NCBI GenBank assembly: GCA_965215015.1
Contig: OZ244042.1
Coordinates: 864,001 to 928,000, forward strand
Direction of reading: 5' to 3'
Source of the DNA: Candidatus Poribacteria bacterium
GTDB taxonomy: Bacteria > Poribacteria > WGA-4E > PCPOR2b
Length of the DNA: 64,000 bases
The notes beneath the pieces were generated by a model that was given only the letters and a program-made list of their open reading frames with translations, did not search any database and was not told the DNA's origin. Position numbers and translations under genes: made by a program. Shown piece by piece: positions 40,679-56,454 of this stretch. The number at the start of each line of letters is the position of its first letter. Positions within the stretch are counted from its first letter, which is position 1.

Positions 40679-40741
40679 CTATTTGCCCTGAAGGTGGCTC
40701 GTGACTAACCAAAGGCAAGCCACGAGAATTGACATACGCAT
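40679..40741 (-). pseudogene. 20-codon stub of a seventh TolB-like gene (signal peptide only)
   Basis: MRMSILVACLWLVTSHLQGK*, preceded by the same intergenic sequence as at 41788 and 50189. Confidence 0.85.
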
Positions 40742-40773
40742 AGCGATTTACCGGTTGCCCTCTTTCTTAAAGG

Positions 40774-41787
40774 TTAAGGAATGGGAGAGACTGGATAGAC
40801 TCCAATCCCTCGGTGATGGGGCGAATTAGACTTAGTCTCCCCCCAACGCTTTGGAACCAGGCCCCGCGGCGCAACCGGCAGCCGAGGATTCCATTCGCGA
40901 GCTGCGAAATCCTTGGCGGGGCTATTGGTCAACTGTATCAATTGACGGTCAGCCAACCGAAAACGATAAATATTTGTAATCCCAATTTTCCCGCCTATCA
41001 GGATAGATTTTCCGTCCGCCCCCCATCCGGAGCCTTGTGCAGCCAATAGGGCACCAGGGGGCAACGTCACTGGCTCAAACTCAATCACTTTACGTTTTGA
41101 CCGATGAAGTGTCGCGATGACCATAGAATACTGATGAGCAACCCCATGGGCAAGCGGCGCCGTGATGACCGTATAGAGAATCTTTTTCCCATCCGGAGAC
41201 CACCCGCCCATACGTATGAACGCCCGGTTGACCGGTTGCGACACCAACCATCGATTCCTGCCATCGGCATTAGCCACATAAATTCCGCCCTCAATCCCGT
41301 TCTCATTCTCGAAGGTCGCTTCAAAAGCAATCCATTTCCCGTCGGGAGACCACTTCGGGGAACTGATAAAGTCTGCTTCTGTTACCAACCGGAGGTTATT
41401 GCCATCGAGGTCTATCGTATAAAGACGACCAATATCTTCGCCGCGCATAAACGCAATCCGTTTCCCGCCGGGGTGCCAATGTGGATGCCCATCATAGGCG
41501 GGATGACGGGTCAGGTTGCGTAGATTACTCCCATCGGCGTCCATCACATAAATGTCGGGGTTGGTTTCGCCATGTCGATAGCTATGGAACGCAATCTGTT
41601 GTCCGTTGGGGGACCAGGTAGGCCAGATATCCATTCCCTCGTTGAATGTGAGCCGTGTTTGGTGCCTCCCATCCGAATTCATCGTATAGATTTCACTATT
41701 CCCATCCCGCTTGGAATAAAACACAATTTTTGCATGAAGGTGGCTCGTGGTCAGCCAAAGACTGACCACGAGAATTGACATACGCAT
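40774..41787 (-). CDS. TolB-like PD40 beta-propeller, secreted (subtype C, copy 3)
   Basis: Signal peptide; WSPNG/WSPDG repeats; IYVMDADG. Confidence 0.9.
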   Translation of the reverse strand: MRMSILVVSLWLTTSHLHAKIVFYSKRDGNSEIYTMNSDGRHQTRLTFNEGMDIWPTWSPNGQQIAFHSYRHGETNPDIYVMDADGSNLRNLTRHPAYDGHPHWHPGGKRIAFMRGEDIGRLYTIDLDGNNLRLVTEADFISSPKWSPDGKWIAFEATFENENGIEGGIYVANADGRNRWLVSQPVNRAFIRMGGWSPDGKKILYTVITAPLAHGVAHQYSMVIATLHRSKRKVIEFEPVTLPPGALLAAQGSGWGADGKSILIGGKIGITNIYRFRLADRQLIQLTNSPAKDFAAREWNPRLPVAPRGLVPKRWGETKSNSPHHRGIGVYPVSPIP

Positions 41788-41819
41788 AGCGATTTACCGG
41801 TTGCCCTCTTTCTTAAAGG

Positions 41820-42818
41820 TTAAGGAATGGGAGAGACTGGATAGACTCCAATCCCTCGGTGATGGGGCGAATTAGACTTAGTCTCCCCCCAACGCTTTGG
41901 AACCAGGCCCCGCGGCGCAACCGGCAGCCGAGGATTCCATTCGTGTGCTCCGAAATCGGTGGCGGGGCTATCTGTCAATTGTATCAATTGACGGTCAGCC
42001 AACCGAAAACGGTAAATATTTGTAATCCCAATGTTCCCGCCTATCAGGATAGATTTTCCGTCTGCACCCCAACCGAATCCTTGTGCAGCCAATAGGACAC
42101 CAGGGGGCAACGTCACTGGCTCAAACTCAATCACTTTACGTTTTGACCGATGGAGTGTCGCGATGACCATAGAATACTGATGAGCAACCCCATGGGCAAG
42201 CGGCGCCGTGATGACCGTATAGAGAATCTTTTTCCCATCCGGAGACCAGCCACCCAGACGCATTGTTGAACGGGGGACCGGTCTTGATACCAGCCCTCGA
42301 TTAGTGCCATTGACATTAACCACATAAATCTCCCCACCCTCCTGGTCAATGCTCGCTTCAAAAGCAATCCATTTCCCGTCAGGTGACCATTCCAGATCGC
42401 CGATAAAGTCCGCCTCTATTACCAACCGGAGGTTATTGCCATCGAGGTCTATTGTATAAATACGACCGATATCTTCACCACGCAAAAACGCAATCCGTTC
42501 CCCGCCGGGGTGCCATTGAGGGCGCACATCAAAAGCAGGATGACGGGTTAGGTTACGTGGGTTACTTCCATCGGCGTGCATCACATATACCTCAGCGTTC
42601 CCATCACGATAACTATGGAACGCAATTTGTTGACCGTTGGGAGACCAGGTAGGCCACCTATCAGCGGCTTCATTGAATGTGAGCCGTATTGGGTTACTGC
42701 CATCGGAGTCCATCCTGTAGATTTCGAGATTTTCATCCCGTTTGGAATAAAACACGATTTTACCCTGAAGGGGACTCGTGACTAACCAAAGGCAAGCCAC
42801 GAAGACAGATATCCGCAA
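41820..42818 (-). CDS. TolB-like PD40 beta-propeller, secreted (subtype C, copy 2)
   Basis: Same motifs; GTG start with AGGAGG RBS. Confidence 0.9.
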   Translation of the reverse strand: MRISVFVACLWLVTSPLQGKIVFYSKRDENLEIYRMDSDGSNPIRLTFNEAADRWPTWSPNGQQIAFHSYRDGNAEVYVMHADGSNPRNLTRHPAFDVRPQWHPGGERIAFLRGEDIGRIYTIDLDGNNLRLVIEADFIGDLEWSPDGKWIAFEASIDQEGGEIYVVNVNGTNRGLVSRPVPRSTMRLGGWSPDGKKILYTVITAPLAHGVAHQYSMVIATLHRSKRKVIEFEPVTLPPGVLLAAQGFGWGADGKSILIGGNIGITNIYRFRLADRQLIQLTDSPATDFGAHEWNPRLPVAPRGLVPKRWGETKSNSPHHRGIGVYPVSPIP

Positions 42819-42830
42819 GGTGCACCTCCT

Positions 42831-43364
42831 TTACTCTGTTTCAAACCATATAGACTTTATACTGCGCTTGCCAGCATTGCCTGTAATATTGCTTCCAGTC
42901 TTGACCATATCAATTCGTGTATACGCCTCAATTTCAAATGTGCCTCCCATAATGGGAAGGTCTACACTTGTCCACCCGTACCTACTCAATTCTTGATTAC
43001 CCCGCCTTCTCGATAGGAAGTTAATGTCATCAAGAATTTTATCCGTTTCATTCCAGGTGTTGGTATTATTTTTGACGAAGTGTTTCCACTCCCATTCGCC
43101 GGTGACCGCGACGCTAGTAGTATTTCTAGCAAAGACTCTGTGCCAGCAGTAAGTGGAAACATCGTTCCACTCCAATCTACCAACTTCCACAATCCACTCG
43201 ACACCTTCGTTACTGGTATCGTTTCCATGGACATGGCTATAAATCTCGTGAGGTTGAGTGTCCCCACCGGCAAAAACACCAACAGCAAGAACCAACGCCC
43301 CAGCTGCCGCCAAAACTAATATCCCCAGATACATAGGCTTCGAGTGTTGCTTTGTCCATTTCAT
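42831..43364 (-). CDS. small secreted beta-rich protein (variant D)
   Basis: AGGAGG RBS, signal peptide, WND..TY..H motif shared with variant A. Confidence 0.8.
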   Translation of the reverse strand: MKWTKQHSKPMYLGILVLAAAGALVLAVGVFAGGDTQPHEIYSHVHGNDTSNEGVEWIVEVGRLEWNDVSTYCWHRVFARNTTSVAVTGEWEWKHFVKNNTNTWNETDKILDDINFLSRRRGNQELSRYGWTSVDLPIMGGTFEIEAYTRIDMVKTGSNITGNAGKRSIKSIWFETE

Positions 43365-43460
43365 AATGAACCTCCTTGTGTTAAAACGAGTAAATATGTG
43401 GTTCTCTTTCTCACCAAGCGTTGACGGTGTTGATGACTTGGCTTCACGCTATTTAATTAG

Positions 43461-43477
43461 AGCAAAACCTATGCCAA
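43461..43477 (-). promoter_or_regulatory. sigma-54 -24/-12 promoter
   Basis: TTGGCATAGGTTTTGCT (GG-N10-GC). Confidence 0.8.
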
Positions 43478-43722
43478 CATTGTGAATGCAGTCAACTCTT
43501 CAGACTCGAACTTGCATAGTTGAACACTCAAAATCTCATAGTTCAGTGATTACTACACAACACAACTCACGACGGGGCAACTACAGTCAGACAGCCGGTT
43601 TGTCATAGGGCAATAAATTGCCCAACTACAAACAGAAGGGCGTAACTCCCCATTTATTTTTTTAATTTTCAGTGGAATCTAACCCCATGCCCCTCATTTC
43701 TGACTTTTCCCGTCCTATCACT

Positions 43723-43862
43723 TCGCAGCTTTCTGCGTTTAAATTTGCCTCAAAATCGGCTAAAAGGCAACACATAATCGACGGAAGCCTTGTGGCCACT
43801 GCGTTCCAGCAGGTTCGCAGCTTTCTGCGACGCTAATCCCCCGATATCGCAGCTTTCTGCGA
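43723..43862. promoter_or_regulatory. three TCGCAG-CTTT-CTGCG(A/T) palindromes, candidate enhancer (UAS)
   Basis: Sites at 43723, 43815, 43847. Confidence 0.65.
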
Positions 43863-43864
43863 AC

Positions 43865-44075
43865 TTGCGTGGATCGACTTCTCTTGATACCGTATTTATC
43901 CATTTTATATCTCAACGTGGGCTCTGGAATACCGAGATGGTCTGCCGCAGCCTTCTGGTCTGCAGTGCTTTCAAGCGCGTCAATGATTAAAACCCGATCG
44001 TACTCATCAACCAACTCGGTGAGTGCACTGAACCCGGTATCGGATTTTCTAACGGCGTCAATCTGGATATCAGTC
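43865..44075 (-). pseudogene. orphan 3' fragment (Fis-type HTH) of the sigma-54 activator
   Basis: EYDRVLIIDALESTADQKAAADHLGIPEPTLRYKMDKYGIKRSRST, nearly identical to the end of 53926..55320; stop codon mutated. Confidence 0.9.
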
Positions 44076-44203
44076 CAGATAACAAGCGTCTGCTGATATG
44101 CTTATGGGGATGAAATAGGGGGAGCAGATGTTGTAGGGCCCAACGATTGTTGAACCCTACAGGGCGGAGTTATCTAGCCTTATAGGCGGGACACATCGCG
44201 TCC

Positions 44204-45185
44204 TTAAGGGCGCAATACGTCAGATTTAATATCGCCCCAGAACAGGGGAAGGAACCACCGGGGCGTAATAAACAAACGGGGATCCCACTCATGGGCGGCA
44301 GTATCCGATCTCGGATTGTCAGTCAACTGTATTAAGACATGGTCTGCCAGACGGAAACGGTAGATATTCGACTGATTAGCCTTCCTACCGGTAAAGAGGA
44401 TGGACCTCCCATCAGCAGAGAAAGATACGGAATGCAAAGGCATCCGTGGCACCGGCACTCGATCCCACTTCTTCACCTTCCTCCGACCAATCGGATCCAG
44501 CGTGGCAATGACCGGAAAGGACTTGGCAACGCTTAAGTCAACTGCCTCCGCATACACAATCTGTTTCCCATTGGGAGACCACCCACCCAAGAACATATGT
44601 GCGCCTTGTCGCGATTGGGACACCTGGAAACGACCCCGGCCATCGGCGTTGACGACAAAAATCTCCCGGCGGCCAGTCCCTCCAAACCCTTCAAAGGCAA
44701 TCCGTTTCCCATCCGGCGACCACTTCGGTCTTGAGGCAAACCACAGGTCTGTGATTTGCTTGACGTTGCGCCCATCGGCATCCATCACGAAAATGTTAAG
44801 ATCCTTATTTTTACCACCGTTGCGACCGCTATTAAACGCAATCTGTGAACCGTCAGGCGACCAGGAGGGATAACCATCAATGCCGGGGTGGTGGGTCAGT
44901 CGCCGTGGATTGCCTCCATCGGCATCCATCACATAAATCTCTGAGTTCCTCTCTTTACCCCTATGCGGGTTCTTATCATCAGCTCGGTAACTATAGAACG
45001 CAATCTGTCGGCCGTTGGGAGACCAGGAGGGGGCAATATCACGCGCCTCGTTGAACGTCAACCGCGTCAGGTCGCTACCGTCAGAGTCCATCTTGTAGAT
45101 TTCCAGGTTTCCAGCTCGACTAGAATAAAACACAATTTTGCCCCAAAGGGGGCTCGTGGCAAGCCACGAGAATTGACATACGCAT
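44204..45185 (-). pseudogene. TolB-like propeller (subtype B, copy 3) with frameshifted signal peptide
   Basis: 11-nt deletion between GGCAAGCCA direct repeats relative to copies at 50150 and 52800; remainder of frame intact. Confidence 0.75.
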
Positions 45186-45198
45186 AACGACACCTCCA

Positions 45199-45708
45199 CT
45201 ATTCTTCTGGGATATCAACGTGGCTCACATGTCTAGCAGTTGTCCAACTCGCTGTTTTAAACCCGTTACCATTCTCAAACTTAATTTGAGTGGTGCTCAC
45301 AAGTGGATGAAAGCCGGAGGGTATCCCCCCAGGGGTATGGGTGTTCAAATATCCCTGAACGAAATATGTATCACCCGCGCGTATTTTCGGTCGTCGATCC
45401 GAGTCGTTCTGCTCCTCGACTAAAATCTGGTCTGTGAGAACGATGTTCCCGTGTGTGAATTTACGTGTCCACTTATAGGTAAGTTTCACCCACGTGTTGG
45501 AGTTGTTTTCTATATCCATGTAATGGTGGCTATAGGTGTCCGTGTCATTCCACCAATGAGCACCGGCACCAATTTCATAGTCTACACTCTTCCAGGTGCC
45601 ATCGACTATATCTGTCACAAGATGATTTGCATAACCTGTCACCACGCCAATCAATAGAGCTGCTAGAGCGGTGAGAACCGTTGCCTTGAAACGACGTGAA
45701 CTTAACAT
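45199..45708 (-). CDS. small secreted beta-rich protein (variant A2)
   Basis: GGAG RBS, signal peptide; near-identical to 52851..53357. Confidence 0.82.
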   Translation of the reverse strand: MLSSRRFKATVLTALAALLIGVVTGYANHLVTDIVDGTWKSVDYEIGAGAHWWNDTDTYSHHYMDIENNSNTWVKLTYKWTRKFTHGNIVLTDQILVEEQNDSDRRPKIRAGDTYFVQGYLNTHTPGGIPSGFHPLVSTTQIKFENGNGFKTASWTTARHVSHVDIPEE

Positions 45709-45859
45709 GATGAAATCTCCTCTGATTGGTGATGAATGCTTTGGCATTCCGTTGGGTGAGAACCATCAACTTTGAGTTGATTCACATATCCAATGGATAT
45801 GTAGTTCTCTTTTTCACCAAGTGTTGACAGTGTTGATGACTTGGCTTCACGCTATTTAA

Positions 45860-45876
45860 AGCAAGACCTATGCCAA
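45860..45876 (-). promoter_or_regulatory. sigma-54 -24/-12 promoter
   Basis: TTGGCATAGGTCTTGCT. Confidence 0.8.
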
Positions 45877-46118
45877 CATTGTGAATGCGGTCAACGCTTC
45901 AGACTCGAACCTACCTCGTTGAACACTCAAAGCCTTGTAGTTGGGGAATTCAACACGGCACCACTCACGACGGGGCAACTACAGTCAGACAGCCGGTTTG
46001 TCATAGGGCAACAAATTGCCCGACTACAAACGGAAGGGCATAACTCCTCATTTATTCTTAATTTTCAGTGGAATCTAACCCTATCCCTCTCATTTCTGAC
46101 TTTTCCCGTCCGGTAACT

Positions 46119-46258
46119 TCGCAGCTTTCTGCGTTTAAATTTGTCTCAAAATCGGCTAAAAGGCAACACATAATCGATGGAAGCCTTGTGGACACTGCGT
46201 TCCAGCAGGTTCGCAGCTTTCTGCGACGCCAATCCCCCGATATCGCAGATTTCTGCGA
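46119..46258. promoter_or_regulatory. three candidate UAS palindromes
   Basis: Sites at 46119, 46211, 46243. Confidence 0.65.
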
Positions 46259-46260
46259 AC

Positions 46261-46475
46261 TTATGTGGATCGACTTCTCTTGATACCGTATTTATCCATT
46301 TTATATCTCAACGTGGGCTCAGGAACACCGAGCGGGTCTGCCGCAGTCTTCTAGTCTCCAGTGTTTTCAAGCGCGTCAAGGATTAAAATCCGCTCGTATT
46401 CCTTAACCCATCCGGTGAGTGTGCTGGGCCCGGTATCGGATTTTCTAACGGCGTCAATCTGGATATCAGTCCAGA
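46261..46475 (-). pseudogene. orphan 3' fragment of the sigma-54 activator
   Basis: EYERILILDALENTGD*KTAADPLGVPEPTLRYKMDKYGIKRSRST*, with internal stop. Confidence 0.9.
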
Positions 46476-46606
46476 TAACAATAGCCAGTTGATATGCTTG
46501 TGGGGATGAAAGTCGAAGGGGTGAACATAAAACGGCATTTAAAGGCGACAATCCAAAAGCGTTGAGGTTTTTATCTCAGCAAGAAAGGGGGCGTCAATGT
46601 AAGGAT

Positions 46607-46649
46607 AAAAAAGCGGTATCATACCCGTGAAAAATGGTGTGACACCGCT
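46607..46649 (-). terminator. intrinsic terminator after the lipoprotein cluster
   Basis: agcggtgtcacacc-loop-ggtatgataccgct followed by a T run on the minus strand. Confidence 0.75.
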
Positions 46650-46677
46650 AAGTCCTGTTGGCATTGTAACTTCTATA

Positions 46678-47193
46678 TTAGTTCGATAAGAATTCATGTA
46701 TGTCTATACCCACTTCCTTAACATCAACGATTTTTATCCCTTCTGGGATTTCCCCGTTATTGAGTTGATCCATAATCGTATCGCCATCATTCTCACCAGA
46801 GGTCACAACGTGATGAGCAGACCGATATATTGTACCGTCCGGTTTTTCATGCTCGTCCCAGTAGACATAGGCGACCCCCGGATATTTAGGAAAGAATATC
46901 CCATTTCTACAATGGGCACCAATAAAATTGTGATCACCACTCTTCCATAGTTTAATCTCTGCCCGATTCAGTAATACCATATTTTCAAAAATAGTCTTAG
47001 GTATTTGCAATTTTTCTTCCTCAGGCAGCAGCCAAGCTACTGGAAATGGATAATCATCGGGTACTTCTGGGTAGTTGCGGGATTCTTCCTTCATACGCAA
47101 CTCAATTTCGTCCTGCCCCAACCTCGCGCAGCCCCACATCAGGGGCAAAACGGCGGTTACCATGCAGACGATAAACACGCCTTGGAGATATTT
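46678..47193 (-). CDS. putative lipoprotein, YPEVP.DYP family paralog 3
   Basis: Lipobox-like MWGC; YPEVPDDYP, KLW..GDH.F.G, YP.VAYV.W. Confidence 0.8.
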   Translation of the reverse strand, partial: KYLQGVFIVCMVTAVLPLMWGCARLGQDEIELRMKEESRNYPEVPDDYPFPVAWLLPEEEKLQIPKTIFENMVLLNRAEIKLWKSGDHNFIGAHCRNGIFFPKYPGVAYVYWDEHEKPDGTIYRSAHHVVTSGENDGDTIMDQLNNGEIPEGIKIVDVKEVGIDIHEFLSN

Positions 47194-47210
47194 CATATTT
47201 TTCACCCTCC

Positions 47211-47720
47211 TCATTTTGATAAGAATTCGTATGGATCTATCCCCGCCGATTTATAGTCAACGATTTTTATCCCTTCTGGGGTTTCCCCATTATTGAGTTG
47301 ATCCATGATGGCACTGCTATCATTCCTACTCGTGGTCAGAACGTTACCAGCATACCGGTATATTGTGCCATCGGGTGCTTCCCGCTCGTCCCATTCGACA
47401 TAAGCGACATCGGGGTAGAGCGGGAAGAATAGTCCGTTTGAAATAACGCCGCCAGTAAAATCGTGGTCGCCTTCACTCCATAGCTTCACCATAGCCATAC
47501 TTAACAACTCCATTTGTCCAACGTCCTCCGGTGCAATCTTTACTCGCTCATCTTCGGATCGCTGCCAATAGACCTTATATGGATAGTCCTCGGGCACTTC
47601 GGGATACTCAAAGCCGGTGATCGACCGCCCTGCTTTTGACCCCAATATAGCGCATCCCCATATCATGGACAAAGCGAAAGGTACCATGTAGACGATAAGA
47701 ACCCACCGATGAGATTTCAT
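47211..47720 (-). CDS. putative lipoprotein, YPEVP.DYP family paralog 2
   Basis: Lipobox-like IWGC; same motifs. Confidence 0.8.
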   Translation of the reverse strand: MKSHRWVLIVYMVPFALSMIWGCAILGSKAGRSITGFEYPEVPEDYPYKVYWQRSEDERVKIAPEDVGQMELLSMAMVKLWSEGDHDFTGGVISNGLFFPLYPDVAYVEWDEREAPDGTIYRYAGNVLTTSRNDSSAIMDQLNNGETPEGIKIVDYKSAGIDPYEFLSK

Positions 47721-47731
47721 GTGTCCCCCTT

Positions 47732-48238
47732 TCACCTTGATAACAATTGGTATGGATCTATCCCCGCCGATTGATAATCGACAATCCGAATTCCTGATGG
47801 AGTTTCTCCATTATTGAGTTGATCCATAATCTTACTACTGTCATTTCCACCGCCTGTCAGAACATTGCTAGCATACCAATATATTGTGCCATCTGGCTCT
47901 TCGCTCTGTTCCCATTCGACATAGGCAACATCCGGGTAGAGCGGGTAGAATGCTCCATTTGTAATAACACCGCCGGTAAAATCGTGGTCGCCTTCACTCC
48001 ATAGCTTCACCATAGCCATACTTAATAGTTCCTGTGCTTCAAGACGATCCGGTGGTATCCCCGCCCGTTCTGCTTCAGAGCGTAACCAAATTGGTGTAAA
48101 TGGATAGTCAGCCGGCACTGGTGGATACTCGTTGGTTTCCTCCTCCGCATCTGCAAGGGGTTCGGGGGTAGACATAAAAGCATCTGTTGACAAAGCATCG
48201 AAGTCATCCGATCTGATGTTTATTCGGGCCATGGACAA
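47732..48238 (-). CDS. YPEVP.DYP family paralog 1, lacking a signal peptide (probably 5'-truncated)
   Basis: YPPVPADYP...KLWSEGDHDFTGG; overlaps the upstream ORF out of frame. Confidence 0.65.
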   Translation of the reverse strand: MSMARINIRSDDFDALSTDAFMSTPEPLADAEEETNEYPPVPADYPFTPIWLRSEAERAGIPPDRLEAQELLSMAMVKLWSEGDHDFTGGVITNGAFYPLYPDVAYVEWEQSEEPDGTIYWYASNVLTGGGNDSSKIMDQLNNGETPSGIRIVDYQSAGIDPYQLLSR

Positions 48239-48440
48239 CCTGTACAGTCATGCTATAAAAGCCATAGCATAGACTATCTGGTGCCTTAACATTTGCCTTA
48301 GCGTATCCCTTGCCTGTGGCTACCCATACTCTGACATCTACGGTCACATGGTGATGAGCATAGCTACTATACACAAAAATTAAGGTAGCACAGAGTAGCA
48401 GGCAAACCGCAATAATTGTTAGGATTACTTGATTTCGCAC
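48204..48440 (-). CDS. small secreted protein (variant E), possibly C-terminally truncated
   Basis: GAGGGT RBS, GTG start, signal peptide ending SYA, beta-strand-like mature part. Confidence 0.6.
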   Translation of the reverse strand: MRNQVILTIIAVCLLLCATLIFVYSSYAHHHVTVDVRVWVATGKGYAKANVKAPDSLCYGFYSMTVQVVHGPNKHQIG

Positions 48441-48470
48441 TTTTCACACCCTCTATTGAGAAATTAAAGG

Positions 48471-48582
48471 TAGGGCTTACGCAGTTGCCCTTTTCAAGCT
48501 TCGTAATTCAGCAATTCAGCGTCTATGTGAAGCGGGTTAAATTACGAATTGTGCTACTACGAACAGAAGGGCATAACCCCTA
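48471..48582. mobile_element. MITE-like element of the same TIR family
   Basis: tagggcttacgcagttg ... gggcataaccccta; internal ttcgtaatt...aattacgaa hairpin. Confidence 0.55.
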
Positions 48583-48799
48583 ATCCCAAGTTCATGCCAA
48601 ATCAAACAATAATGTCCCCAAATCAGTATTAATTTCTTAAAGGGAAGAGGCCAAAAAGCCCGTGCAGGGATTAGAACAGTTATATAGGGCAATAAATTGC
48701 CCGACTACAAACAGAAGGGCGTAACTCCTCATTTATTCTTAATTTTCAGTGGAATCTAACCCCATGCCTCTCATTTCTGACTTTTCCCGTCCTGTCACT

Positions 48800-48939
48800 T
48801 CGCAGCTTTTTGCGTTTAAATTTGCCTCAAAATCGGCTTAACAGCAACACATAATCGCTGAAAGCCTTGTGGACACTGCGTTCCAGCAGGTTCGCAGCTT
48901 TCTGCGACGCCAATCCCCCGATATCGCAGCTTTCTGCGA
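48800..48939. promoter_or_regulatory. three candidate UAS palindromes
   Basis: Sites at 48800 (one mismatch), 48892, 48924. Confidence 0.6.
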
Positions 48940-48940
48940 A

Positions 48941-49075
48941 CTTACGTGGATTGGCTGCTTTTGATACCATCGCGTCAAGGATTAAAATCCGCTCGTATTC
49001 CTTAACCAATCCGGTGAGTGTACTGGGCCCGGTATCGGATTTTCTAGCGGCGTCAATCTGGATATCAGTCTAGAT
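48941..49075 (-). pseudogene. orphan activator 3' fragment with internal deletion of the HTH
   Basis: LTGLVKEYERILILDA joined directly to the terminal codons. Confidence 0.85.
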
Positions 49076-49198
49076 AACAAGCGTCTGCTGATATGCTTGT
49101 GGGGATGAAATAGGGGAACAGATGTTGTAGGGTCCAACAATTGTTGAACCCTACAGGGCGGAGTTATCCCAGCCTTATAGGCGGGACACATCGCGTTC

Positions 49199-50188
49199 TT
49201 AAGGGCGCAATACGTCAGATTTAATATCGCCCCAGAACAGGGGAAGGAACCACCGGGGCGTAATAAACAAACGGGGATCCCACTCATGGGCGGCAGTATC
49301 CGATCTCGGATTGTCAGTCAACTGTATTAAGGTATGGTCTGCCAGACGGAAACGGTAGATATTCGACTGATTAGCCTTCCTACCAGTAAAGAGGATGGAC
49401 CTCCCATCAGCAGAGAAAGATACGGAATGCAAAGGCATCCGTGGCACCGGCACTCGATCCCACTTCTTCACCTTCCTGCGACCAATCGGATCCAGCGTGG
49501 CAATGACCGGAAAGGACTTGGCAACGCTTAAGTCAACTGCCTCCGCATACACAATCTGTTTCCCAGTGGGAGACCACCCACCCAAGAACATATGCGCGCC
49601 TTGTCGCGATTGGGACACCTGGAAACGACCCCTGCCATCGGCGTTGACGACAAAAATCTCCCGGCCAGTCCCTGCAAACCCTTCAAAGGCAATCCGTTTC
49701 CCATCCGACGACCACTTCGGTCTTGAGGCAAACCCCAGGTCTGTGATTTGCTTGATGTTGCTCCCATCGGCATCCATCACGAAAATGTTGATATCCTTAT
49801 TTTTACCACCGTTGCGACCGCTATCAAACGCAATCTGTGAACCGTCAGGCGACCAGGAAGGATAACCATCAGTGATGGGGTGGTGGGTTAGTCGCCGTGG
49901 ATTGCCTCCATCGGCATCCATCACATAAATCTCTGAGTTCCTCTCTTTACCCCTATGCAGGTTCTTATCATCAGCCCGGTAACTATGGAACGCAATCTGT
50001 CGGCCGTTGGGAGACCAGGAGGGGGCAATATCATGCGCCTCATTGAACGTCAACCGCGTCAGATCGCTACCGTCAGAGTCCATCTTGTAGATTTCCAGGT
50101 TTCCAGCCCGACTGGAATGAAACACAATTTTGCCCCAAAGGGGGCTCGTGGCAAGCCAGAGGCAAGCCACGAGAATTGACATACGCAT
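49199..50188 (-). CDS. TolB-like PD40 beta-propeller, secreted (subtype B, copy 2)
   Basis: Signal peptide, WSPNG/WSPDG repeats. Confidence 0.9.
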   Translation of the reverse strand: MRMSILVACLWLATSPLWGKIVFHSSRAGNLEIYKMDSDGSDLTRLTFNEAHDIAPSWSPNGRQIAFHSYRADDKNLHRGKERNSEIYVMDADGGNPRRLTHHPITDGYPSWSPDGSQIAFDSGRNGGKNKDINIFVMDADGSNIKQITDLGFASRPKWSSDGKRIAFEGFAGTGREIFVVNADGRGRFQVSQSRQGAHMFLGGWSPTGKQIVYAEAVDLSVAKSFPVIATLDPIGRRKVKKWDRVPVPRMPLHSVSFSADGRSILFTGRKANQSNIYRFRLADHTLIQLTDNPRSDTAAHEWDPRLFITPRWFLPLFWGDIKSDVLRP

Positions 50189-50256
50189 AGCGATTTACCG
50201 GTTGCCCTCTTTCTTAAAGGTTAAGGAATGGGAGAGACTGGATAGACTCCAATCCC

Positions 50257-51219
50257 TCAGTGATGGTGCGAGTTAGACTTAATCTCCCCCCAATGCTTTG
50301 GAACCAGTCCCTGCGGTGCAACTGGCAGCCGAGGATTCCATTCGTGTGCTCCGAAATCGGTGGCAAGGCTATCTGTCAACTGTATCAGTTGACGATCAGC
50401 CAACCGAAAACGGTAAATATTCCAAATGCCAATCTTCGCTGCTATGAGGATAGATTTTCCGTCTGCACCCCACCCCAAACCTCGCACAACCAATAGGGGA
50501 TTGGGAGGTAGTCTTACCGTCTCAAACTCAATCACTTTACGTTTTGACCGATGAAGTGTAGCGATGACCATAGAATACTGATGAGCAACCCCATGGGCAA
50601 GCGGCGCCGTGATGACCGTATAGAGAATCTTTTTCCCATCCGGAGACCAGCCACCCAGACGCATTGTTGAACGGGGGACCGGTCTTGATACTAGCCCTCG
50701 ATTAGTGCCATTGACATTAACCACATAAATCTCCCCACCCTCCTGGTCAATGCTCGCTTCAAAAGCAATCCATTTCCCGTCAGGTGACCATTCCAGGTCG
50801 CCGATAAAGTCTGCCTCTATTACCAACCGGAGGTTATTGCCATCGAGGTCTATTGTATAAATACGACCGATATCTTCACCACGCAAAAACGCAATCTGTT
50901 TCCCGTCGGGGTGCCATTGAGGGCGTACATCAAAAGCAGGATGACGGGTTAGGTTACGTGGGTTACTTCCATCGGCGTCCATCAGATATACCTCAGCGTT
51001 CCCATCACGATAACTATGGAACGCAATTTGTTGACCGTTGGGAGCCCAGGTAGGCCACCTATCAGCGGCTTCATTGAATGTGAGCCGTATTGGGTTACTG
51101 CCATCGGAGTCCATCCTGTAGATTTCGAGATTTTCATCCCGTTTGGAATAAAACACGATTTTACCCTGAAGGGGACTCGTGGCAAGCCAGAGGCAAGCCA
51201 CGAGAATTGACATACGCAT
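50257..51219 (-). CDS. TolB-like PD40 beta-propeller, secreted (subtype C, copy 1)
   Basis: Signal peptide, PD40 repeats; stops earlier than copies 2 and 3. Confidence 0.9.
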   Translation of the reverse strand: MRMSILVACLWLATSPLQGKIVFYSKRDENLEIYRMDSDGSNPIRLTFNEAADRWPTWAPNGQQIAFHSYRDGNAEVYLMDADGSNPRNLTRHPAFDVRPQWHPDGKQIAFLRGEDIGRIYTIDLDGNNLRLVIEADFIGDLEWSPDGKWIAFEASIDQEGGEIYVVNVNGTNRGLVSRPVPRSTMRLGGWSPDGKKILYTVITAPLAHGVAHQYSMVIATLHRSKRKVIEFETVRLPPNPLLVVRGLGWGADGKSILIAAKIGIWNIYRFRLADRQLIQLTDSLATDFGAHEWNPRLPVAPQGLVPKHWGEIKSNSHHH

Positions 51220-51229
51220 AACGACACCT

Positions 51230-51417
51230 CTACTCTTCTGGGACTTCAACGTTACTCACATATCTAGCAGTTGTCCAACTCGCTGTTTTATAAACCCGTT
51301 ACCATTCTCAAACTTAATTTGGGTAGTGCTCTCAACCTTATATGTGCCGGGGCGTATCCCTCCAGGGGTATGGGTGTTCAAATACCCCTGAACGAAATAT
51401 ATATCACCCGCACGTAT
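51230..51417 (-). pseudogene. 3' remnant of a third variant-A secreted protein gene
   Basis: IRAGDIYFVQGYLNTHTPGGIRPGTYKVESTTQIKFENG; 2-nt insertion near 51290; 5' part and promoter deleted. Confidence 0.85.
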
Positions 51418-51524
51418 TACGGAAGGGCATAACTCCTCATTTATTCTTAATTTGAGTAAAATCTAACCCCATTCCTCTCATTTCTTACTTTTCCTGTCCT
51501 GTAAGTTCGCAGCTTTCTGTGAAC

Positions 51525-51735
51525 TTACGTGGATCGGCTGCTCTTGATACTGTATTTATCCATTTTATATCTCAACGTGGGCTCAGGAACCCCGAGATGG
51601 TATGCCGCAGCCTTTTGGTCTCCAGTGCTTTCAAGCGCGTCAAAGATTAAAATCCGCTCGTATTCCTTAAGCAATCCGGTGAGCCCTTTGTTTTCAGGAT
51701 CGAATTTGCCAGGGGTGCCTGGATATCAGTCCAGA
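51525..51735 (-). pseudogene. orphan activator 3' fragment followed by a single UAS-like palindrome (51507-51522)
   Basis: GKFDPENKGLTGLLKEYERILILDALESTGDQKAAAYHLGVPEPTLRYKMDKYSIKSSRST*. Confidence 0.9.
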
Positions 51736-51844
51736 TAACAATCTTCTGCTGATATGCTTGTGGGGATGAAATAGGGGAGCAGATGTTGTAGGGTTCAACG
51801 ATTGTTGAACCCTACGGGCAGAGTTATCCCAGCCTTTCGCGTCC

Positions 51845-52837
51845 TTAAGGGCCCAATACGTCAGATTTAATATCGCCCCAGAACAGGGGAAGGAACCACC
51901 GGGGCGTAATAAACAAACGGGGATCCCATTCATGGGCGGCAATATCCGATCCCGGATTATCGGTCAACTGTATTAAGGTATGGTCTGCCAGACGGAAACG
52001 GTAGATATTCGACTGATTAGCCTTCCTACCAGTAAAGAGGATGGACCTCCCATCGACAGAGAAAGATTCAGAATATATCTGCAGCATCCGTGGCACCGGC
52101 ACTCGGTCCCACTTCTTCACCTTCCTTCGTCCTGCTAGATTCAGCGTGGCAATGACAGGAAAGGACTTGGCAATGCTTGAGCCAACCGCGTCCGCATACA
52201 CAATCTGTTTCCCATTGGGAGACCACCCACCCAAGAACATATGCGCGCCTCGTCGCGATTGGGACACCTGGAAACGCCCCCTCCCATCGGCGTTGACGAC
52301 AAGAATCTCCCGGTTAGCCCCTATAAACCCTTCAAAGGCAATCCGTTTCCCATCCGGCGACCACTTCGGTCTTGAGGCAAATCCCATGTTTGTGATTTGC
52401 TTGACGTTGCTCCCATCAGCATCCATCACGAAAATGTTGATATCCTTATTTTTACCACCGTTGCGATCGCTACTAAACGCAATCTGATTTCCGTCGGGAT
52501 GCCAATCTGCATAGTTATCGAGTCCGGGGTGGTGGGTCAGTCGCCGTGGATTGCCTCCATCGGCATCCATCACATAAATCTCTGAGTTCCTCTCTTTACC
52601 CCTATGCAGGTTCTTATCATCAGCCCGGTAACTATGGAACGCAATCTGTCGGCCGTTGGGAGACCAGGAGGGGGCAATATCATGCGCCTCATTGAACGTC
52701 AACCGCGTCAGATCGCTACCGTCAGAGTCCATCTTGTAGATTTCCAGGTTTCCAACCCGATTGGAATAAAATACAATTTTGCCCCAAAGGGGGCTCGTGG
52801 CAAGCCAAAGGCAAGCCACGAGAATTGACATACGCAT
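51845..52837 (-). CDS. TolB-like PD40 beta-propeller, secreted (subtype B, copy 1)
   Basis: GGAGGT RBS, signal peptide, PD40 repeats. Confidence 0.9.
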   Translation of the reverse strand: MRMSILVACLWLATSPLWGKIVFYSNRVGNLEIYKMDSDGSDLTRLTFNEAHDIAPSWSPNGRQIAFHSYRADDKNLHRGKERNSEIYVMDADGGNPRRLTHHPGLDNYADWHPDGNQIAFSSDRNGGKNKDINIFVMDADGSNVKQITNMGFASRPKWSPDGKRIAFEGFIGANREILVVNADGRGRFQVSQSRRGAHMFLGGWSPNGKQIVYADAVGSSIAKSFPVIATLNLAGRRKVKKWDRVPVPRMLQIYSESFSVDGRSILFTGRKANQSNIYRFRLADHTLIQLTDNPGSDIAAHEWDPRLFITPRWFLPLFWGDIKSDVLGP

Positions 52838-52850
52838 AGCGACACCTCCA

Positions 52851-53357
52851 CTATTCTGGGACTTCAACGTTGCTCACATATCTAGCAGTTGTCCAACTCG
52901 CTGTTTTAAACCCGTTACCATTCTCAAACTTAATTTGAGTGGTGCTCTCAACCTCATATGTGCCGGGGCGTATCCCCCCAGGGGTATGGGTGTTTAAATA
53001 CCCCTGAACGAAATATGTATCACCCGCGCGTATTTTCGGTCGTCGATCCGAGTCGTTCTGCTCCTCGATTAAAATCTGGTCTGTGAGAACGATGTTCCCG
53101 TATGTGAATTTATGTGTCCACTTATAGGTAAGTTTCACCCACGTGTTGGAGTTGTTTTCTATATCCATGTAATGGTGGCTATAGGTGTCCGTGTCATTCC
53201 ACCAATGAGCCCCGGCACCAATTTCATAGTCTACACTCTTCCAGGTGCCCTCGACTATATCTGTCACAAGATGATTTGCATAACCTGCGACCACGCCAAT
53301 CAATAGAGCTGCTAGAGCGGTGAGAACTGTTGCCTTGAAACGACGTGAACTTAACAT
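52851..53357 (-). CDS. small secreted beta-rich protein (variant A1)
   Basis: AAGGAG RBS, signal peptide ending GYA. Confidence 0.82.
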   Translation of the reverse strand: MLSSRRFKATVLTALAALLIGVVAGYANHLVTDIVEGTWKSVDYEIGAGAHWWNDTDTYSHHYMDIENNSNTWVKLTYKWTHKFTYGNIVLTDQILIEEQNDSDRRPKIRAGDTYFVQGYLNTHTPGGIRPGTYEVESTTQIKFENGNGFKTASWTTARYVSNVEVPE

Positions 53358-53508
53358 GATGAAATCTCCTTTGATTGGTGAGGAATGCTTTGGCATTCCG
53401 TTGGGTGAGAACTATCAACTTTGAGTTGATTCACATATCCGATGGATATGTGGTTCTCTTTTTCACCAAGTGTTGACAGTGTTGATGACTTGGCTTCACG
53501 CTATTTAG

Positions 53509-53525
53509 AGCAAGACCTATGCCAA
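53509..53525 (-). promoter_or_regulatory. sigma-54 -24/-12 promoter
   Basis: TTGGCATAGGTCTTGCT. Confidence 0.82.
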
Positions 53526-53554
53526 CATTGTGAATGCGGTCAACTCTTCAGACT

Positions 53555-53713
53555 CGAACGTACGGAATTGAACACTCAAAATCTCATAGTTCAGTGATTC
53601 ATCACCGCACCATACAACTCACGACGTCCGATGAATCGGGCGATTACAGTCAGACAGCCGGTTTGTCATAGGGCAATAAATTGCCCGACTACAAACAGAA
53701 GGGCGTAACTTCT
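53555..53713. mobile_element. degenerate MITE-like element between UAS and promoter (also at ~43506-43650 and ~45906-46048)
   Basis: Left end gaacgtacggaattg, right end gggcgtaacttct, internal ccgatgaatcgg and gggcaataaattgccc hairpins. Confidence 0.5.
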
Positions 53714-53783
53714 CATTTATTCTTAATTTTCAGTGGAATCTAACCCCATCCCTCTCATTTCTGACTTTTCCCGTCCTGTCACT

Positions 53784-53923
53784 TCGCAGCTTTCTGCGTT
53801 TAAATTTGCCTCAAAATCGGCTAAAAGGCAACACATAATCGCTGGAAGCCTTGTGGCCACTGCGTTCCAGCAGGTTCGCAGCTTTCTGCGACGCCAATCC
53901 CCCGATATCGCAGCTTTCTGCGA
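53784..53923. promoter_or_regulatory. three candidate UAS palindromes directly after the activator stop
   Basis: TCGCAGCTTTCTGCG(A/T) at 53784, 53876, 53908. Confidence 0.68.
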
Positions 53924-53925
53924 AC

Positions 53926-55320
53926 TTACGTGGATCGACTTCTCTTGATACCGTATTTATCCATTTTATATCTCAACGTGGGCTCTGGAATACCGAGATG
54001 GTCTGCCGCAGCCTTCTGGTCTCCAGCACTTTCAAGCGCGTCAATGATTAAAATCCGCTCGTATTCCGTAACCAATCCGGTGAGCCCTTTGTTTTCAGGA
54101 TCGAATTTGCCAGCGACCTCAATCTGGAGGTCAGTGGTAGAAATCCAATCACTTCTGGCTAACACCACTGCCTGCTCGATACGATTTTCCAGTTCACGGA
54201 CGTTCCCCGGCCATGAGTATCTCATTAAGAACGTCATTGCTGCCTCCTGAAAGCCTCTGATTTGTTTGCCATCGGTTAGATGCGATTTTTGAGTGAGAAA
54301 GTGAGTGGCAAGTAGTGGTATATCGGATTTGCGCTCGCGTAACGGAGGAACGTGTAATGGAAAAACGTTGAGTCGATAGTAGAGATCCTCTCGAAATGTA
54401 CCCTCCTGGACTGCCTGCTCCAGATTTTTATTTGTCGCTGCAATCACTCGGACGTCCACTTCAATGGTCTGCTTCCCGCCGAGCCGTTCAAGCTGTCTTT
54501 CCTGCAAGACGCGCAGGAACTTTACTTGAGATTCCGCATCGAGTTCAGCAATTTCATCGAGGAAGATGGTGCCGCGGTTCGCACTCTCAAATTTTCCTTG
54601 CTTTCGCTCTGTTGCGCCGGTGAATGCTCCCCGCTCATGTCCAAAGAGTTCGCTGCCGAGAAGGGCATTCTCTGTTTGCCCGCAGGCAACCGTAACAAAG
54701 GGCTGACTGACTCTGGGACTGTGATGGTGAATGGCTTGGGCGATAAGTTCTTTTCCTGTTCCGCTTTCGCCTTGGACGAGAACGGTTGTGTCCGTCGAAG
54801 CGAGGCGGTCTATCTGCTCAAACAGGCGGCGCATGCGCTCGGAATCTCCAACGATGATTTTGTCGGGACCATAGCGATACCCTTTGATACGGTCAATTTC
54901 GGATTGTTGCAGGTCTGCAATTCGGCGTTCCAACAGCAACCTCTCATAAGCCTGATTGACCCGAAAGGGGAGTTCGCTGTAGCCTTGCGTTCTCTTTTCA
55001 ATGAAATCATAGGCACCCAACTTGTGGGCTCTCATGGCGTTTTCTATGCTCCCCTCGACGGTAACGATAATCACTTTGATGGCAGGGTTATACGCCGTAA
55101 TCTCCTTTAGAAACGTAAGCCCTTCTTCACTATCTTGGCGTTGCAATCTCAAATCGAGAATGACTATGTCCGGTTGGAACGCTTGCAGTTGATGAGAAGC
55201 AGTTGAGGTATCCGTTGCTGTCTCAATCCGATATCGTAGTGGAAGCAACTTCGCGCTATACACCTTTGTGTAGATTTCTTCGTCCTCGACGATAAGGATT
55301 TTTCCCGGTTTATCTGACAT
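53926..55320 (-). CDS. NtrC/AtoC-family sigma-54-dependent response regulator
   Basis: Receiver domain (VEDE, LDLRL), GESGTGKE, GAFTGA, FLDEI, WPGNVREL, Fis-type HTH. Confidence 0.96.
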   Translation of the reverse strand: MSDKPGKILIVEDEEIYTKVYSAKLLPLRYRIETATDTSTASHQLQAFQPDIVILDLRLQRQDSEEGLTFLKEITAYNPAIKVIIVTVEGSIENAMRAHKLGAYDFIEKRTQGYSELPFRVNQAYERLLLERRIADLQQSEIDRIKGYRYGPDKIIVGDSERMRRLFEQIDRLASTDTTVLVQGESGTGKELIAQAIHHHSPRVSQPFVTVACGQTENALLGSELFGHERGAFTGATERKQGKFESANRGTIFLDEIAELDAESQVKFLRVLQERQLERLGGKQTIEVDVRVIAATNKNLEQAVQEGTFREDLYYRLNVFPLHVPPLRERKSDIPLLATHFLTQKSHLTDGKQIRGFQEAAMTFLMRYSWPGNVRELENRIEQAVVLARSDWISTTDLQIEVAGKFDPENKGLTGLVTEYERILIIDALESAGDQKAAADHLGIPEPTLRYKMDKYGIKRSRST

Positions 55321-55367
55321 GATTTCGCCTCCAGTAGTTTTGGGTAGGTCTTGTACCTGACCAAAAC

Positions 55368-55393
55368 AGGGTAACCACAAGGGTTACCCTTAC
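55368..55393. repeat. REP-like hairpin overlapping the kinase stop codon
   Basis: agggtaacc-acaag-ggttaccct-tac. Confidence 0.55.
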
Positions 55394-56454
55394 AGTATTA
55401 ATACATCTCGTTGTTGTCGGAGTAAAAAGATTGGCAACTCTACATAGATGGTTGTTCCAAGGTCAGGTTTTGACAAAACATCAATCTGTCCGTGGTGTTC
55501 GTTGATAATTTGCTGTGCAATCCACATGCCTAACCCGGTGCCGCCTCTATCTTTTTTCGTCGAATACAGCGGCTTAAAGATGTTTTGCAACGCTTCCGCG
55601 CTAATACCGCAGCCGGTGTCTTGTATATCAATTCGGATGGTATCAAGCACCCGGGCCATTCGGAGGGTAAGTGTGCCCCCGGTCTCCTCCATCGCCTCAC
55701 ACGCATTAATAACGAGATTCTCAAATGCCATCCGCAGCTTGTCCACATCTCCATGAATGTGGGGGACCACTTCGTACTGTCTACTCAGCGTGATTTTATG
55801 TTCCCAATCCGGATTTCTTTGCAGCGTTTCGTGCAGCAAAACTTCAATCTCAAGACGAAGATCAAAAACCCGAAATTCAGGTTGTATCGTTGCCTCAAGC
55901 AATTGATTGACCGTCTGACGTGTGTGATTCACCTGTTTTTTGATCTCTCGGGTGAATTTGCTCGTGGCGTCTTTAGAATGCCTCCCCGCAGGCGTTGTCT
56001 CCGCTAGCATCATCAAATTTTCCGAACAGGCTTCAATGATTGCCAGCGGATTTTTAACGGCATGAGCGAGACTACGAAGCGTATTGGCGTTGCTCTCCGC
56101 CTGTTCACGGGCACTATGTTCCTGTTGCAACATTTCTTCACGTAATCGCTGTGCTTCACGGTGCTTGGTATAGTAACGCCGGATAACAACAACAAACAGA
56201 ACGAGACATCCCACAATCGCCAACGCGGAAGGAATGGCAATCCAACCGTTGAGATACCAGTGCGACATAACTTTCAAGTGCCTGTTTGCAGCTTGGACAA
56301 CCACTGCGACACGAGGAGTTGTGTGATTAGAGACCGGTATAAAGACGGTACTGACGATGCCAATTGGATTTCCCTGCGATTGGGCGGCTGCGTCCCGCAC
56401 TTCGCTTGAAAGTAAAAGCCCGATTAATAGGAACCGTGACAATGCAGGTTTCAT
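55390..56454 (-). CDS. sensor histidine kinase with very short extracytoplasmic region
   Basis: H-box LAHAVKNPL, N-box NLVINA, DTGCG, GTGLG; signal-like N-terminus and one TM. Confidence 0.92.
   Translation of the reverse strand: MKPALSRFLLIGLLLSSEVRDAAAQSQGNPIGIVSTVFIPVSNHTTPRVAVVVQAANRHLKVMSHWYLNGWIAIPSALAIVGCLVLFVVVIRRYYTKHREAQRLREEMLQQEHSAREQAESNANTLRSLAHAVKNPLAIIEACSENLMMLAETTPAGRHSKDATSKFTREIKKQVNHTRQTVNQLLEATIQPEFRVFDLRLEIEVLLHETLQRNPDWEHKITLSRQYEVVPHIHGDVDKLRMAFENLVINACEAMEETGGTLTLRMARVLDTIRIDIQDTGCGISAEALQNIFKPLYSTKKDRGGTGLGMWIAQQIINEHHGQIDVLSKPDLGTTIYVELPIFLLRQQRDVLIL

Follow-up and report, generated by a model that had tools for sequence, protein, structure and literature searches.

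The locus analysed here raises the question of why the 3′ end of a gene for a transcriptional activator should recur ahead of one set of exported proteins after another. It lies in a window of 64,000 nt (G000:C1:864001-928000; the window is the whole stretch of DNA that was analysed) in the metagenome-assembled genome of a Candidatus Poribacteria bacterium, a member of a sponge-symbiont lineage, which consists of a single contig of 5.94 Mb (G000; the relatives compared below, also titled 'Candidatus Poribacteria', are likewise denoted by G numbers). The array spans positions 40,679-56,454 of the window, and every gene of the region is on the minus strand: a histidine kinase gene opens the locus, the gene for an NtrC-type sigma-54 activator follows, and five cassettes (U0-U4) lie between this pair and the gene for a giant TPR and LamG protein (Table 1). 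The most probable explanation, to which we assign a probability of roughly two in three, is a duplication-derived, recombination-homogenised sigma-54 regulon array in a hypervariable slot between the kinase/activator pair and the giant TPR gene.

A sequence-only reading of the window by a model had claimed that the 3′ end of the activator gene recurs four more times, followed each time by the same palindromes and, in intact cassettes, by a sigma-54 promoter, and this anatomy was borne out in all three respects. The final ~70 codons of the activator gene (54135-53926) are the source of a repeated 'tail' of ~210-270 nt, of which four orphan copies (c1-c4) lie within the window and a fifth lies 4.75 Mb away. 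The repeat was defined by an alignment of five intergenic stretches, by self-BLAST and by tblastn with the C-terminus of the activator, which all agree, and the tblastn ends match the positions 51525, 48941, 46261 and 43865 given before. The tail is part of a module of ~0.7 kb, comprising in order the activator tail (~70 codons), palindromes, a copy of a dispersed repeat, a promoter and most of a leader. The palindromes (14-16 nt) start right after the activator stop codon, a -24/-12 site (TGGCAT-N5-TTGCT) lies ~260-400 nt further on, and a leader of ~110 nt follows.

Matches to the palindrome CGCAGAAAGCTGCG with at most two mismatches number 13 in the window, compared with 0.27 expected, and none of 100 shuffles reached 13. 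All 13 fall in the five modules (M0-M4), three each behind the real tail, c2, c3 and c4, and one, degenerate, behind c1. The full 16-nt palindrome (class I, as defined below) occurs in 10 exact copies in the 5.94-Mb genome, where simple base odds predict ~0.35; the array accounts for eight of these and the distant module for the other two, with none outside modules. The promoter TGGCATAGGTYTTGCT is found three times in the window without a mismatch, upstream of A1, A2 and D; when up to three mismatches are allowed, 0.87 matches are expected by chance, and 6 of 100 shuffles reach three. The promoter is damaged before E, where the spacer has a 1-nt deletion and the -12 GC is lost; the orthologous promoters are intact in G009 and G017, and that of G007 has CTGC at -12. 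No promoter is present before C1 in cassette U1, which also lacks most of its A gene. Judged from these elements, three of the five cassettes look intact. A scan for sigma-70 promoters stayed at shuffle level (20 found, 21.3 expected), an Rfam search of 40400-56600 returned no family at E ≤0.1, and an exact scan of metagenome contigs for the double palindrome returned no match.

A sixth module (G000:5668660-5669445), situated 4.75 Mb from the array and 80% identical, precedes E-like and Y-like genes. The four tails of the window and the distant one share a single 5′ junction at about activator codon 410, which argues for a single origin and subsequent spread by unequal crossing-over; the distant tail also carries the same in-frame TAG as c3. 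On a larger scale, the block 43847-46470 (tail-B3-A2-M3-tail) matches 51507-54135 (tail-B1-A1-M0-tail) with 89.5% identity over 2658 nt in the self-BLAST. Enhancer segments cluster by genome and not by cargo: the five G000 copies are 93-96% identical to M0, and the three segments of G003 form a clade of their own (100/99), with a Y cassette behind one of them that is orthologous to that of G000 (Y proteins 80-84% identical). Similarly, M0 and M4 are 89% identical over ~690 nt, while the A1 and D proteins encoded behind them share 20% identity. As modules cluster by genome and are alike ahead of unrelated cargo, the module has been copied or converted independently of its cargo.

The module may have arisen once, by segmental duplication with an upstream breakpoint inside the activator gene, and unequal crossing-over and gene conversion would then have amplified, spread and homogenised it. 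Because the intact cassettes possess their own enhancer and promoter and the distant module has the same sites, control is expected in trans: a single activator is predicted to drive all intact modules, the distant one included, and the regulon would have been enlarged by co-duplication of enhancer and promoter with cargo. Dependence on sigma-54 and binding of the activator to the palindromes are predictions of the same kind. The activator (Response_reg, 4.8e-19; Sigma54_activat, 1.1e-71; HTH_8, 6e-11) combines an AAA+ domain, with GAFTGA visible in its translation, with a Fis-type helix-turn-helix (HTH), and rpoN is located at 2521283-2522941 with a TIGR02395 score above the cut-off. A second, divergent sigma-54-like gene was observed elsewhere in the window, in which only Sigma54_DBD was recognised and which scores 99 bits against a cut-off of 277 for the rpoN model. 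The histidine kinase is short in G000 (371 aa) and in G003 (357 aa), and its orthologues in seven other species have 1029-1142 aa; the long orthologue of G011, the only one scanned, carries a Reg_prop propeller and a Y_Y_Y periplasmic sensor. This architecture is known from glycan-sensing hybrid two-component systems.

The behaviour of the tail was followed in 13 loci of 12 relatives (G003, G005, G007 with two loci, G008, G009, G010, G011, G013, G014, G015, G017 and G022), which were chosen by a full-tail match; G006 was left out for its short contig, and the other genomes of the genus had no full-tail match among the matches listed. At 13 of 13 activator loci, the recognition helix and the palindrome co-vary in two classes. 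Class I combines the helix ...LRYKMDKY with TCGCAG-N4-CTGCGA (eight loci; the palindrome is degenerate in G022 and G008), and class II combines ...LRRKM(D/N)KY with TCGCCA-N4-TGGCGA (five loci). An alignment to the NtrC-family DNA-binding domain 2m8g and to Fis puts the variable Y/R residue in helix two of the Fis-type HTH, at a position that we take to touch DNA. The distribution of the classes conflicts with the descent of the genomes. In both the rpoB tree and the tree of the activator body, G015 (class II) is the sister of G005 (class I); G013 (class II) falls without resolution next to G007 and G017 (class I) in the body tree and groups with G007 in the rpoB tree, from which G017 is missing. 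The rpoB and body trees concur on the groupings relied on here (G015+G005; G009-G010-G011). On the body tree the class needs three changes, and an approximately unbiased (AU) test rejects a class-II clade (p 0.0014), whereas in the tree of the tail a single branch separates the classes (87/91) and the AU test rejects the G015+G005 clade (p 0.007). A sliding comparison of identity places the break in the final ~300-400 nt of the activator gene.

The orphan tails follow the same rule, in that they keep the class of their adjacent sites regardless of the class of the host activator. The orphan of G009 is 98% identical to the class-I tail of G005 and 80% to the tail of its own activator, which is class II; behind this orphan come a class-I site and an A gene that has a TGA stop. 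The orphan of G015 is closer to the activator tail of another species (91%) than to its own (88%), and the distant orphan of G007 groups with class II and carries two class-II sites. Taken together with the conflict between the class distribution and the rpoB and body trees, this suggests that tail and enhancer move together as one specificity unit, and a reason for their joint movement is that the HTH encoded by the tail is the one that fits the palindromes next to it. The HTH and its sites are neighbours, so recombination would exchange both at once; recombination in the 3′ part of the activator would change the first cassette and could switch specificity, and the genus would thus have switched between the two classes. 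A scheme of plain tandem duplication, in which the tail would be no more than a breakpoint scar, was given up; recombinational exchange was kept in the explanation because of the co-variation and the foreign-looking orphans. These orphans may stem from exchange between lineages or from differential loss out of an ancestral array.

Table 1. Features of the array and its surroundings (window positions; strand; description)
Feature	Position	Strand	Description
Histidine kinase	55390-56505	-	371 aa; first gene of the locus
NtrC-type sigma-54 activator	53926-55380	-	484 aa; Response_reg, Sigma54_activat, AAA_lid_14, HTH_8 domains
Module M0	53397-53925	-	Class-I palindromes 53922-53909, 53890-53877, 53798-53785
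M0 contents		-	Dispersed repeat ~53687-53558; promoter 53524-53509; ~110-nt leader
A1	52851-53396	-	Transmembrane helix + beta-sandwich; annotated form 168 aa, start at 53357
B1	51845-52867	-	Exported PD40 (TolB-like) beta-propeller
Module M1 (degenerate)	51288-51771	-	Tail c1; one degenerate palindrome 51521-51508; dispersed-repeat piece; no promoter
Orphan tail c1	51710-51528	-	tblastn; 61 codons, 87% aa identity
A-gene 3′ remnant (M1/U1)	51418-51288	-	
C1	50257-51249	-	PD40 propeller
B2	49199-50188	-	PD40 propeller; hairpin 49155-49127 behind
Module M2	48441-49116	-	Tail c2; palindromes 48938-48925, 48906-48893, 48814-48801; damaged promoter 48601-48585
Orphan tail c2	49069-48962	-	tblastn; 36 codons; ~80-nt internal deletion
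E remnant	48440-48204	-	78 of ~125 codons
Y1	48238-47732	-	N-terminal ~90 residues missing; joined to E by deletion
Y2	47735-47211	-	Lipoprotein-type 'YPEVP' domain protein
Y3	47214-46678	-	Lipoprotein-type 'YPEVP' domain protein
Terminator-like hairpin + T run	46540-46677	-	Within ~95-nt element; precedes orphan tails in other species
Module M3	45748-46511	-	Tail c3; palindromes 46257-46244, 46225-46212, 46133-46120; promoter 45875-45860
Orphan tail c3	46500-46264	-	tblastn; in-frame TAG
A2	45747-45199	-	
B3	45199-44204	-	Hairpin 44161-44133 behind
Module M4	43365-44115	-	Tail c4; palindromes 43861-43848, 43829-43816, 43737-43724; promoter 43476-43461
Orphan tail c4	44074-43868	-	tblastn; 69 codons, 75% aa identity; stop codon mutated
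D	43364-42831	-	Divergent A-family member
C2	42818-41820	-	
C3	41787-40774	-	
PD40 stub	40741-40679	-	20 codons
Giant TPR + LamG protein	31010-40576	-	3188 aa; conserved far flank of the variable slot
Second, divergent sigma-54-like gene	8063-9436	-	457 aa

If tail and enhancer form a unit, it is tempting to ask whether the unit has been selected as such. The module could be a portable homology and specificity handle by which whole cassettes are excised, exchanged between lineages and stacked next to the activator through homologous recombination, in the manner of an integron that lacks an integrase, an idea that we consider doubtful. Its boundaries are sharp ahead of unrelated cargo, a complete module with an orphan tail stands before the E-like and Y-like genes of the distant locus, and the orphans of G009 and G015 resemble other species' activator tails more than their own, as described above. 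In addition, the cassette adjacent to the activator in G005 and G013 corresponds collinearly, at 87-93% identity, to the one that stands second in G015, where an orphan tail precedes it; similarity is lowest, at 78%, over the tail and the first sites. The tail begins at the same junction (q284 of the c3 query) in G015, G010, G009 and the distant locus of G007; a conserved, terminator-like element of ~95 nt precedes it in the first three and was not found before the distant orphan of G007. A handle, however, should be kept, and the tails decay: c3 and the distant copy contain the TAG, c2 has an ~80-nt deletion and lacks most of the HTH, and in other species the tails are shorter (~40-130 nt in four species) or absent (G003). 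An activator that recombined with c2 or c3 would lose its HTH, neither circles nor junction reads were seen in the material examined, which consisted of contigs, and most of the patterns are explained by differential loss out of an ancestral array, with no need for transfer. Because of this decay, the orphan tails look like passengers, that is decaying scars, rather than a selected handle. It is likewise only a tentative suggestion that HTH tail, palindromes and promoter constitute a portable 'specificity plus expression' unit, with which an exchange and stacking of envelope cassettes between lineages, by homologous recombination alone, would re-tune specificity in the same event. Of the earlier proposal of a recombining cassette array, then, the discrete module and the variation of cassette number, order and content between species and strains stand, and the selected handle is doubtful. 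The collinearity of G013/G005 with G015 supports the related proposal that recombination, in or beside the activator tail, has altered which cassette adjoins the intact regulator. Support is weak for the idea that this proximity matters, as the intact cassettes have their own enhancers and promoters.

Decay of the tails also bears on whether they are expressed. Orphan tails might yield small Fis-like HTH proteins that compete for the palindromes as anti-activators, and c4 does lie in an 84-codon open reading frame (ORF; 44014-43760) owing to its changed stop codon, while neither c1 nor c4 contains an internal stop. This is nevertheless highly improbable: apart from the TAG of c3 and the distant copy, the loss in c2 and the short or absent tails of other species, the HTH of c1 is not in any ORF of at least 50 aa, its 8 changes among 61 residues at 93% nucleotide identity to the real tail suggest little purifying selection, and no start codon with a ribosome-binding site conserved across species was seen.

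The array occupies a slot whose borders are stable and whose contents are not. The kinase and activator are conserved across the relatives (activator 81-85% aa identity), as is the giant TPR gene at the far flank, for which the N-terminal sequence was compared. Between the stop codon of the activator and the start of the giant TPR gene lie 0.25 kb in G008, 1.5 kb in G022, 3.4 kb in G014, 3.6 kb in G011, 7.0 kb in G005, 7.7 kb in G010, 11.3 kb in G015 and 13.3 kb in G000, and the slot holds differing mixes of A/D, PD40, E/Y and other small anchored proteins. On the cassette strand, each locus has 0-3 sigma-54 promoters, with repeats of them in G003, G007, G009 and G010. G009 and G010, sisters in the rpoB tree, are 95% identical over 3 kb of downstream flank and have different cassettes next to the activator. 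Also present in the slot of G015 (L021:10450-11535 and 12785-13912) are a matrixin-like peptidase and another protein with C-terminal sorting domains of the type-IX-secretion kind, which indicates that the slot is not limited to A, PD40 and Y cargo. Metagenome contigs point to variation among strains as well: in run X6, from another study, 967 nt stand where G000 has 11 (48200-48212, at the E/Y1 fusion), and one X6 contig skips 41774-42824, which is exactly one PD40 unit (1049 nt). Several joints in X5, also from another study, and the joints in X6 that go back are located in repeats and have short sides or unknown letters between them. The comparison across relatives and metagenome contigs that the sequence-only reading had proposed reveals variation in cassette number, order and cargo.

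An array built from repeats of 0.7-2.6 kb that are 89-97% identical is difficult to assemble, and none of the public contigs reaches across it, which would suit an artefact in which variants of a single cassette from different strains were merged into a spurious tandem array. Such an artefact is extremely unlikely. The genome is one contig of 5.94 Mb; contigs of X1, the likely source run, match the cassette-specific junctions (from tail c3 to Y3, across the E/Y1 fusion, and through C2-D-M4) with 100% identity, and no joints are reported for X1 in the region. X5 also has the C2-D-M4 junction, and the G000 form of the E/Y1 fusion at 100% identity. Comparable arrays with repeated sigma-54 promoters are found in the single-contig genomes G003, G007 and G015, and in G009 (two contigs).

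The cargo list and its order are as claimed before, namely A1 + B1 in U0, an A remnant + C1 + B2 in U1, E + Y1-Y3 in U2, A2 + B3 in U3 and D + C2 + C3 + the PD40 stub in U4, to which the loss of the U1 promoter, the damage to the U2 promoter, the deletion fusion of E and Y1 and the sixth module are now added. A1, A2 and D form one fast-evolving family; A1 has only 6 relatives among 5.8 billion proteins, and as a query it matches 9 of 20 genomes of the genus, G000 included. Its model (predicted local distance difference test, pLDDT, 86.7) is a transmembrane (TM) helix and a plain beta sandwich whose nearest folds are generic sandwiches (ApaG, arrestin-type; TM-score ~0.4-0.5). The B and C proteins are exported PD40 propellers, a type with 64 tblastn hits longer than 150 aa in G000. 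They had been named TolB, an identification that was ruled out: TIGR02800 reaches 170 bits where its cut-off demands 343, and the match is confined to the propeller part (profile positions ~247-404). The Y ('YPEVP') domain has ~130 conserved residues (model pLDDT >90), occurs in lipoprotein and TM-anchored forms and has 12 tblastn hits in G000; a structure search gave no convincing match (Foldseek best E 0.08; VIA-align best Z 2.8; no match in the PDB). No Pfam or NCBIfam family covers A, D, E or Y, and the ESM Atlas offered only sub-0.85 leads for A1 and Y2. A cluster of four Y-domain copies elsewhere in the genome (L136, G000:5139-5146 kb) includes a gene for an extracytoplasmic-function-type sigma factor.

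The sequence-only reading had suggested that this cargo represents a polymorphic system of toxin-immunity or effector-partner type, with orphan 3′ fragments at exchangeable modules like those of cdi and rhs loci. A formal likeness exists, since orphan 3′ fragments stand before alternative cargo, and the cargo is exported, fast-evolving and lineage-restricted. Yet the fragments copy a transcription factor; no toxin, Rhs/CdiA/type-VI-secretion-type delivery domain, immunity family or secretion-system family was found in the cargo or its neighbours, the giant TPR/LamG protein included; the A1 model is a TM-anchored sandwich; and 64 PD40 hits in one genome are not the pattern of immunity genes. 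The suggestion is thus very improbable, although a toxin of novel fold in A, D, E or Y is still conceivable. A complex prediction for the A1 sandwich and the B1 propeller scored 0.00, which is evidence for neither side. WD40 and TolB-like propellers are reported to be enriched in sponge microbiomes and WD40 to be abundant in Poribacteria (PMC5735121 and PMC3909097). Export signals, fold, the reported repeat enrichment in sponge symbionts and the Reg_prop/Y_Y_Y sensor of orthologous kinases lead us to guess that the exported or membrane-anchored cargo comprises proteins of a binding type, with a probable role in the envelope toward host, phage or matrix; this is the least certain step of the interpretation.

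Several elements of the array recur elsewhere. The dispersed repeat (~90-130 nt; window 53558-53687, minus strand), located between palindromes and promoter in each module, has ~35 further copies in G000 at 68-91% identity and copies in many other genomes of the genus among those listed, and in some family members; it contains the palindrome GGGCAATTTATTGCCC and may be an element resembling miniature inverted-repeat transposable elements or repetitive extragenic palindromes. The promoter and leader segment (window 53397-53555), which has two small hairpins and no Rfam match, recurs with 79-88% identity at other loci and in further species (e.g., G000:4947414-4947544, G004:5936767-5936921 and G007:3328653-3328805), where it precedes A-family genes of 72% to ~27% protein identity; at most of these loci conservation is far higher in the leader than in the coding sequence. 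A second locus with the same logic (L132, G000:4938619-4948715) encodes a receiver-less enhancer-binding protein of 316 aa; behind its gene come the conserved promoter/leader, one A-like gene and seven PD40 genes in tandem. At L137:2624-3097 (G000:1102623-1103096), a chimeric ORF that adjoins a PD40 gene joins an AAA+-like fragment of an enhancer-binding protein to a D-like C-terminal part, and may be another activator/cargo deletion scar. Each B-type PD40 gene is followed by a near-perfect palindromic hairpin of 29 nt (51787-51815, 49127-49155 and 44133-44161), between its stop codon and the orphan tail, where contigs of public runs often end.

Certain points weigh against the explanation by duplication, homogenisation and exchange. 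Two of the five cassettes, U1 and U2, are degenerate, and decay of redundant duplicates fits them as well as a maintained regulon does. With one genome per species, the turnover is mostly turnover between species, and the order of the cassettes rests on the single-contig assembly. With respect to the exchange of specificity, the class groups were named after the data had been seen and the tail alignment is short, with 104-210 columns, which makes the AU p-values optimistic; the genomes, being related, do not count as independent, and convergent change at the HTH retains a residual probability as another cause of the class pattern.

The array shares features with several known systems. Like NtrC-family sigma-54 regulons (NtrBC, ZraSR, AtoSC), it combines a kinase, an activator with receiver, AAA+ domain and Fis-type HTH, inverted-repeat sites ~260-400 nt before a GG-N10-GC promoter, and rpoN. 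In contrast to these regulons, the target operons line up in a variable tandem row immediately after the activator gene, every enhancer comes with a dead copy of the HTH-coding end of the activator, and the kinase has lost the Reg_prop/Y_Y_Y sensor of its orthologues. The orphan modules of cdi and rhs loci are similar in that 3′ fragments homologous to an upstream full-length gene precede alternative genes, and recombination there can swap attachments; here, however, the intact gene is a regulator and not a toxin, toxin and delivery domains are lacking, and the cassettes carry their own promoters and so are not silent. Linked specificity pairs are known from the immunity region of lambdoid phages (repressor and operators) and from the agr and com pherotype segments. 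In the present case, too, a recognition helix and its palindromes are adjacent and their distribution conflicts with the species tree, as would be expected if they were exchanged together, although the pair consists of the DNA-binding end of a chromosomal sigma-54 activator and an enhancer, and exchange leaves orphan tails. Head-to-tail units, a shared junction, copy-number differences between strains and a closer likeness of paralogues within a genome than of orthologues between genomes are also characteristic of tandem arrays under concerted evolution; by contrast, it is the regulatory module that is homogenised here, and the cargo is unrelated or diverged (A vs. D 20%; A vs. E/Y no similarity). 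Integrons and shufflons differ from the array: no recombinase was found among the minus-strand ORFs of at least 95 aa in 40.5-56.6 kb (overlapping plus-strand ORFs were outside this search), and inverted repeats of at least 25 nt are limited to the 29-nt hairpins behind the B genes. A shufflon or inversion model was ruled out for want of inverted repeats. The cargo shares PD40 repeats with the TolB/PD40 'eukaryote-like' repeat proteins of sponge symbionts but is not TolB, and the passages considered from PMC5735121 and PMC3909097 do not mention a sigma-54 cassette organisation. At the level of listings and abstracts, no published description was found of such an array or, for enhancer-binding proteins, of such a linked specificity pair. 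The new element is the co-variation of helix and palindrome in conflict with the trees; the sigma-54 regulon, the concerted tandem array and the linked specificity module are known kinds that are combined here.

In this array one can see how a regulon may be enlarged, reduced and given a new specificity by recombination. It is a natural example of regulon growth by copying of an enhancer and promoter with new cargo, and of the DNA-binding end of a transcription factor being exchanged with its sites as a linked unit, for which the orphan tails are datable scars. The pairing of Y or R at one helix position with a CAG or CCA half-site constitutes a directly testable specificity code for the Fis-type HTH. 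For sponge symbiosis, there is one fixed genomic slot whose exported PD40 proteins and small anchored proteins turn over fast, both from species to species and from strain to strain. They are candidates for host-facing or phage-facing surface functions, and in most species the sensor predicted to control the slot has a periplasmic Reg_prop/Y_Y_Y domain.

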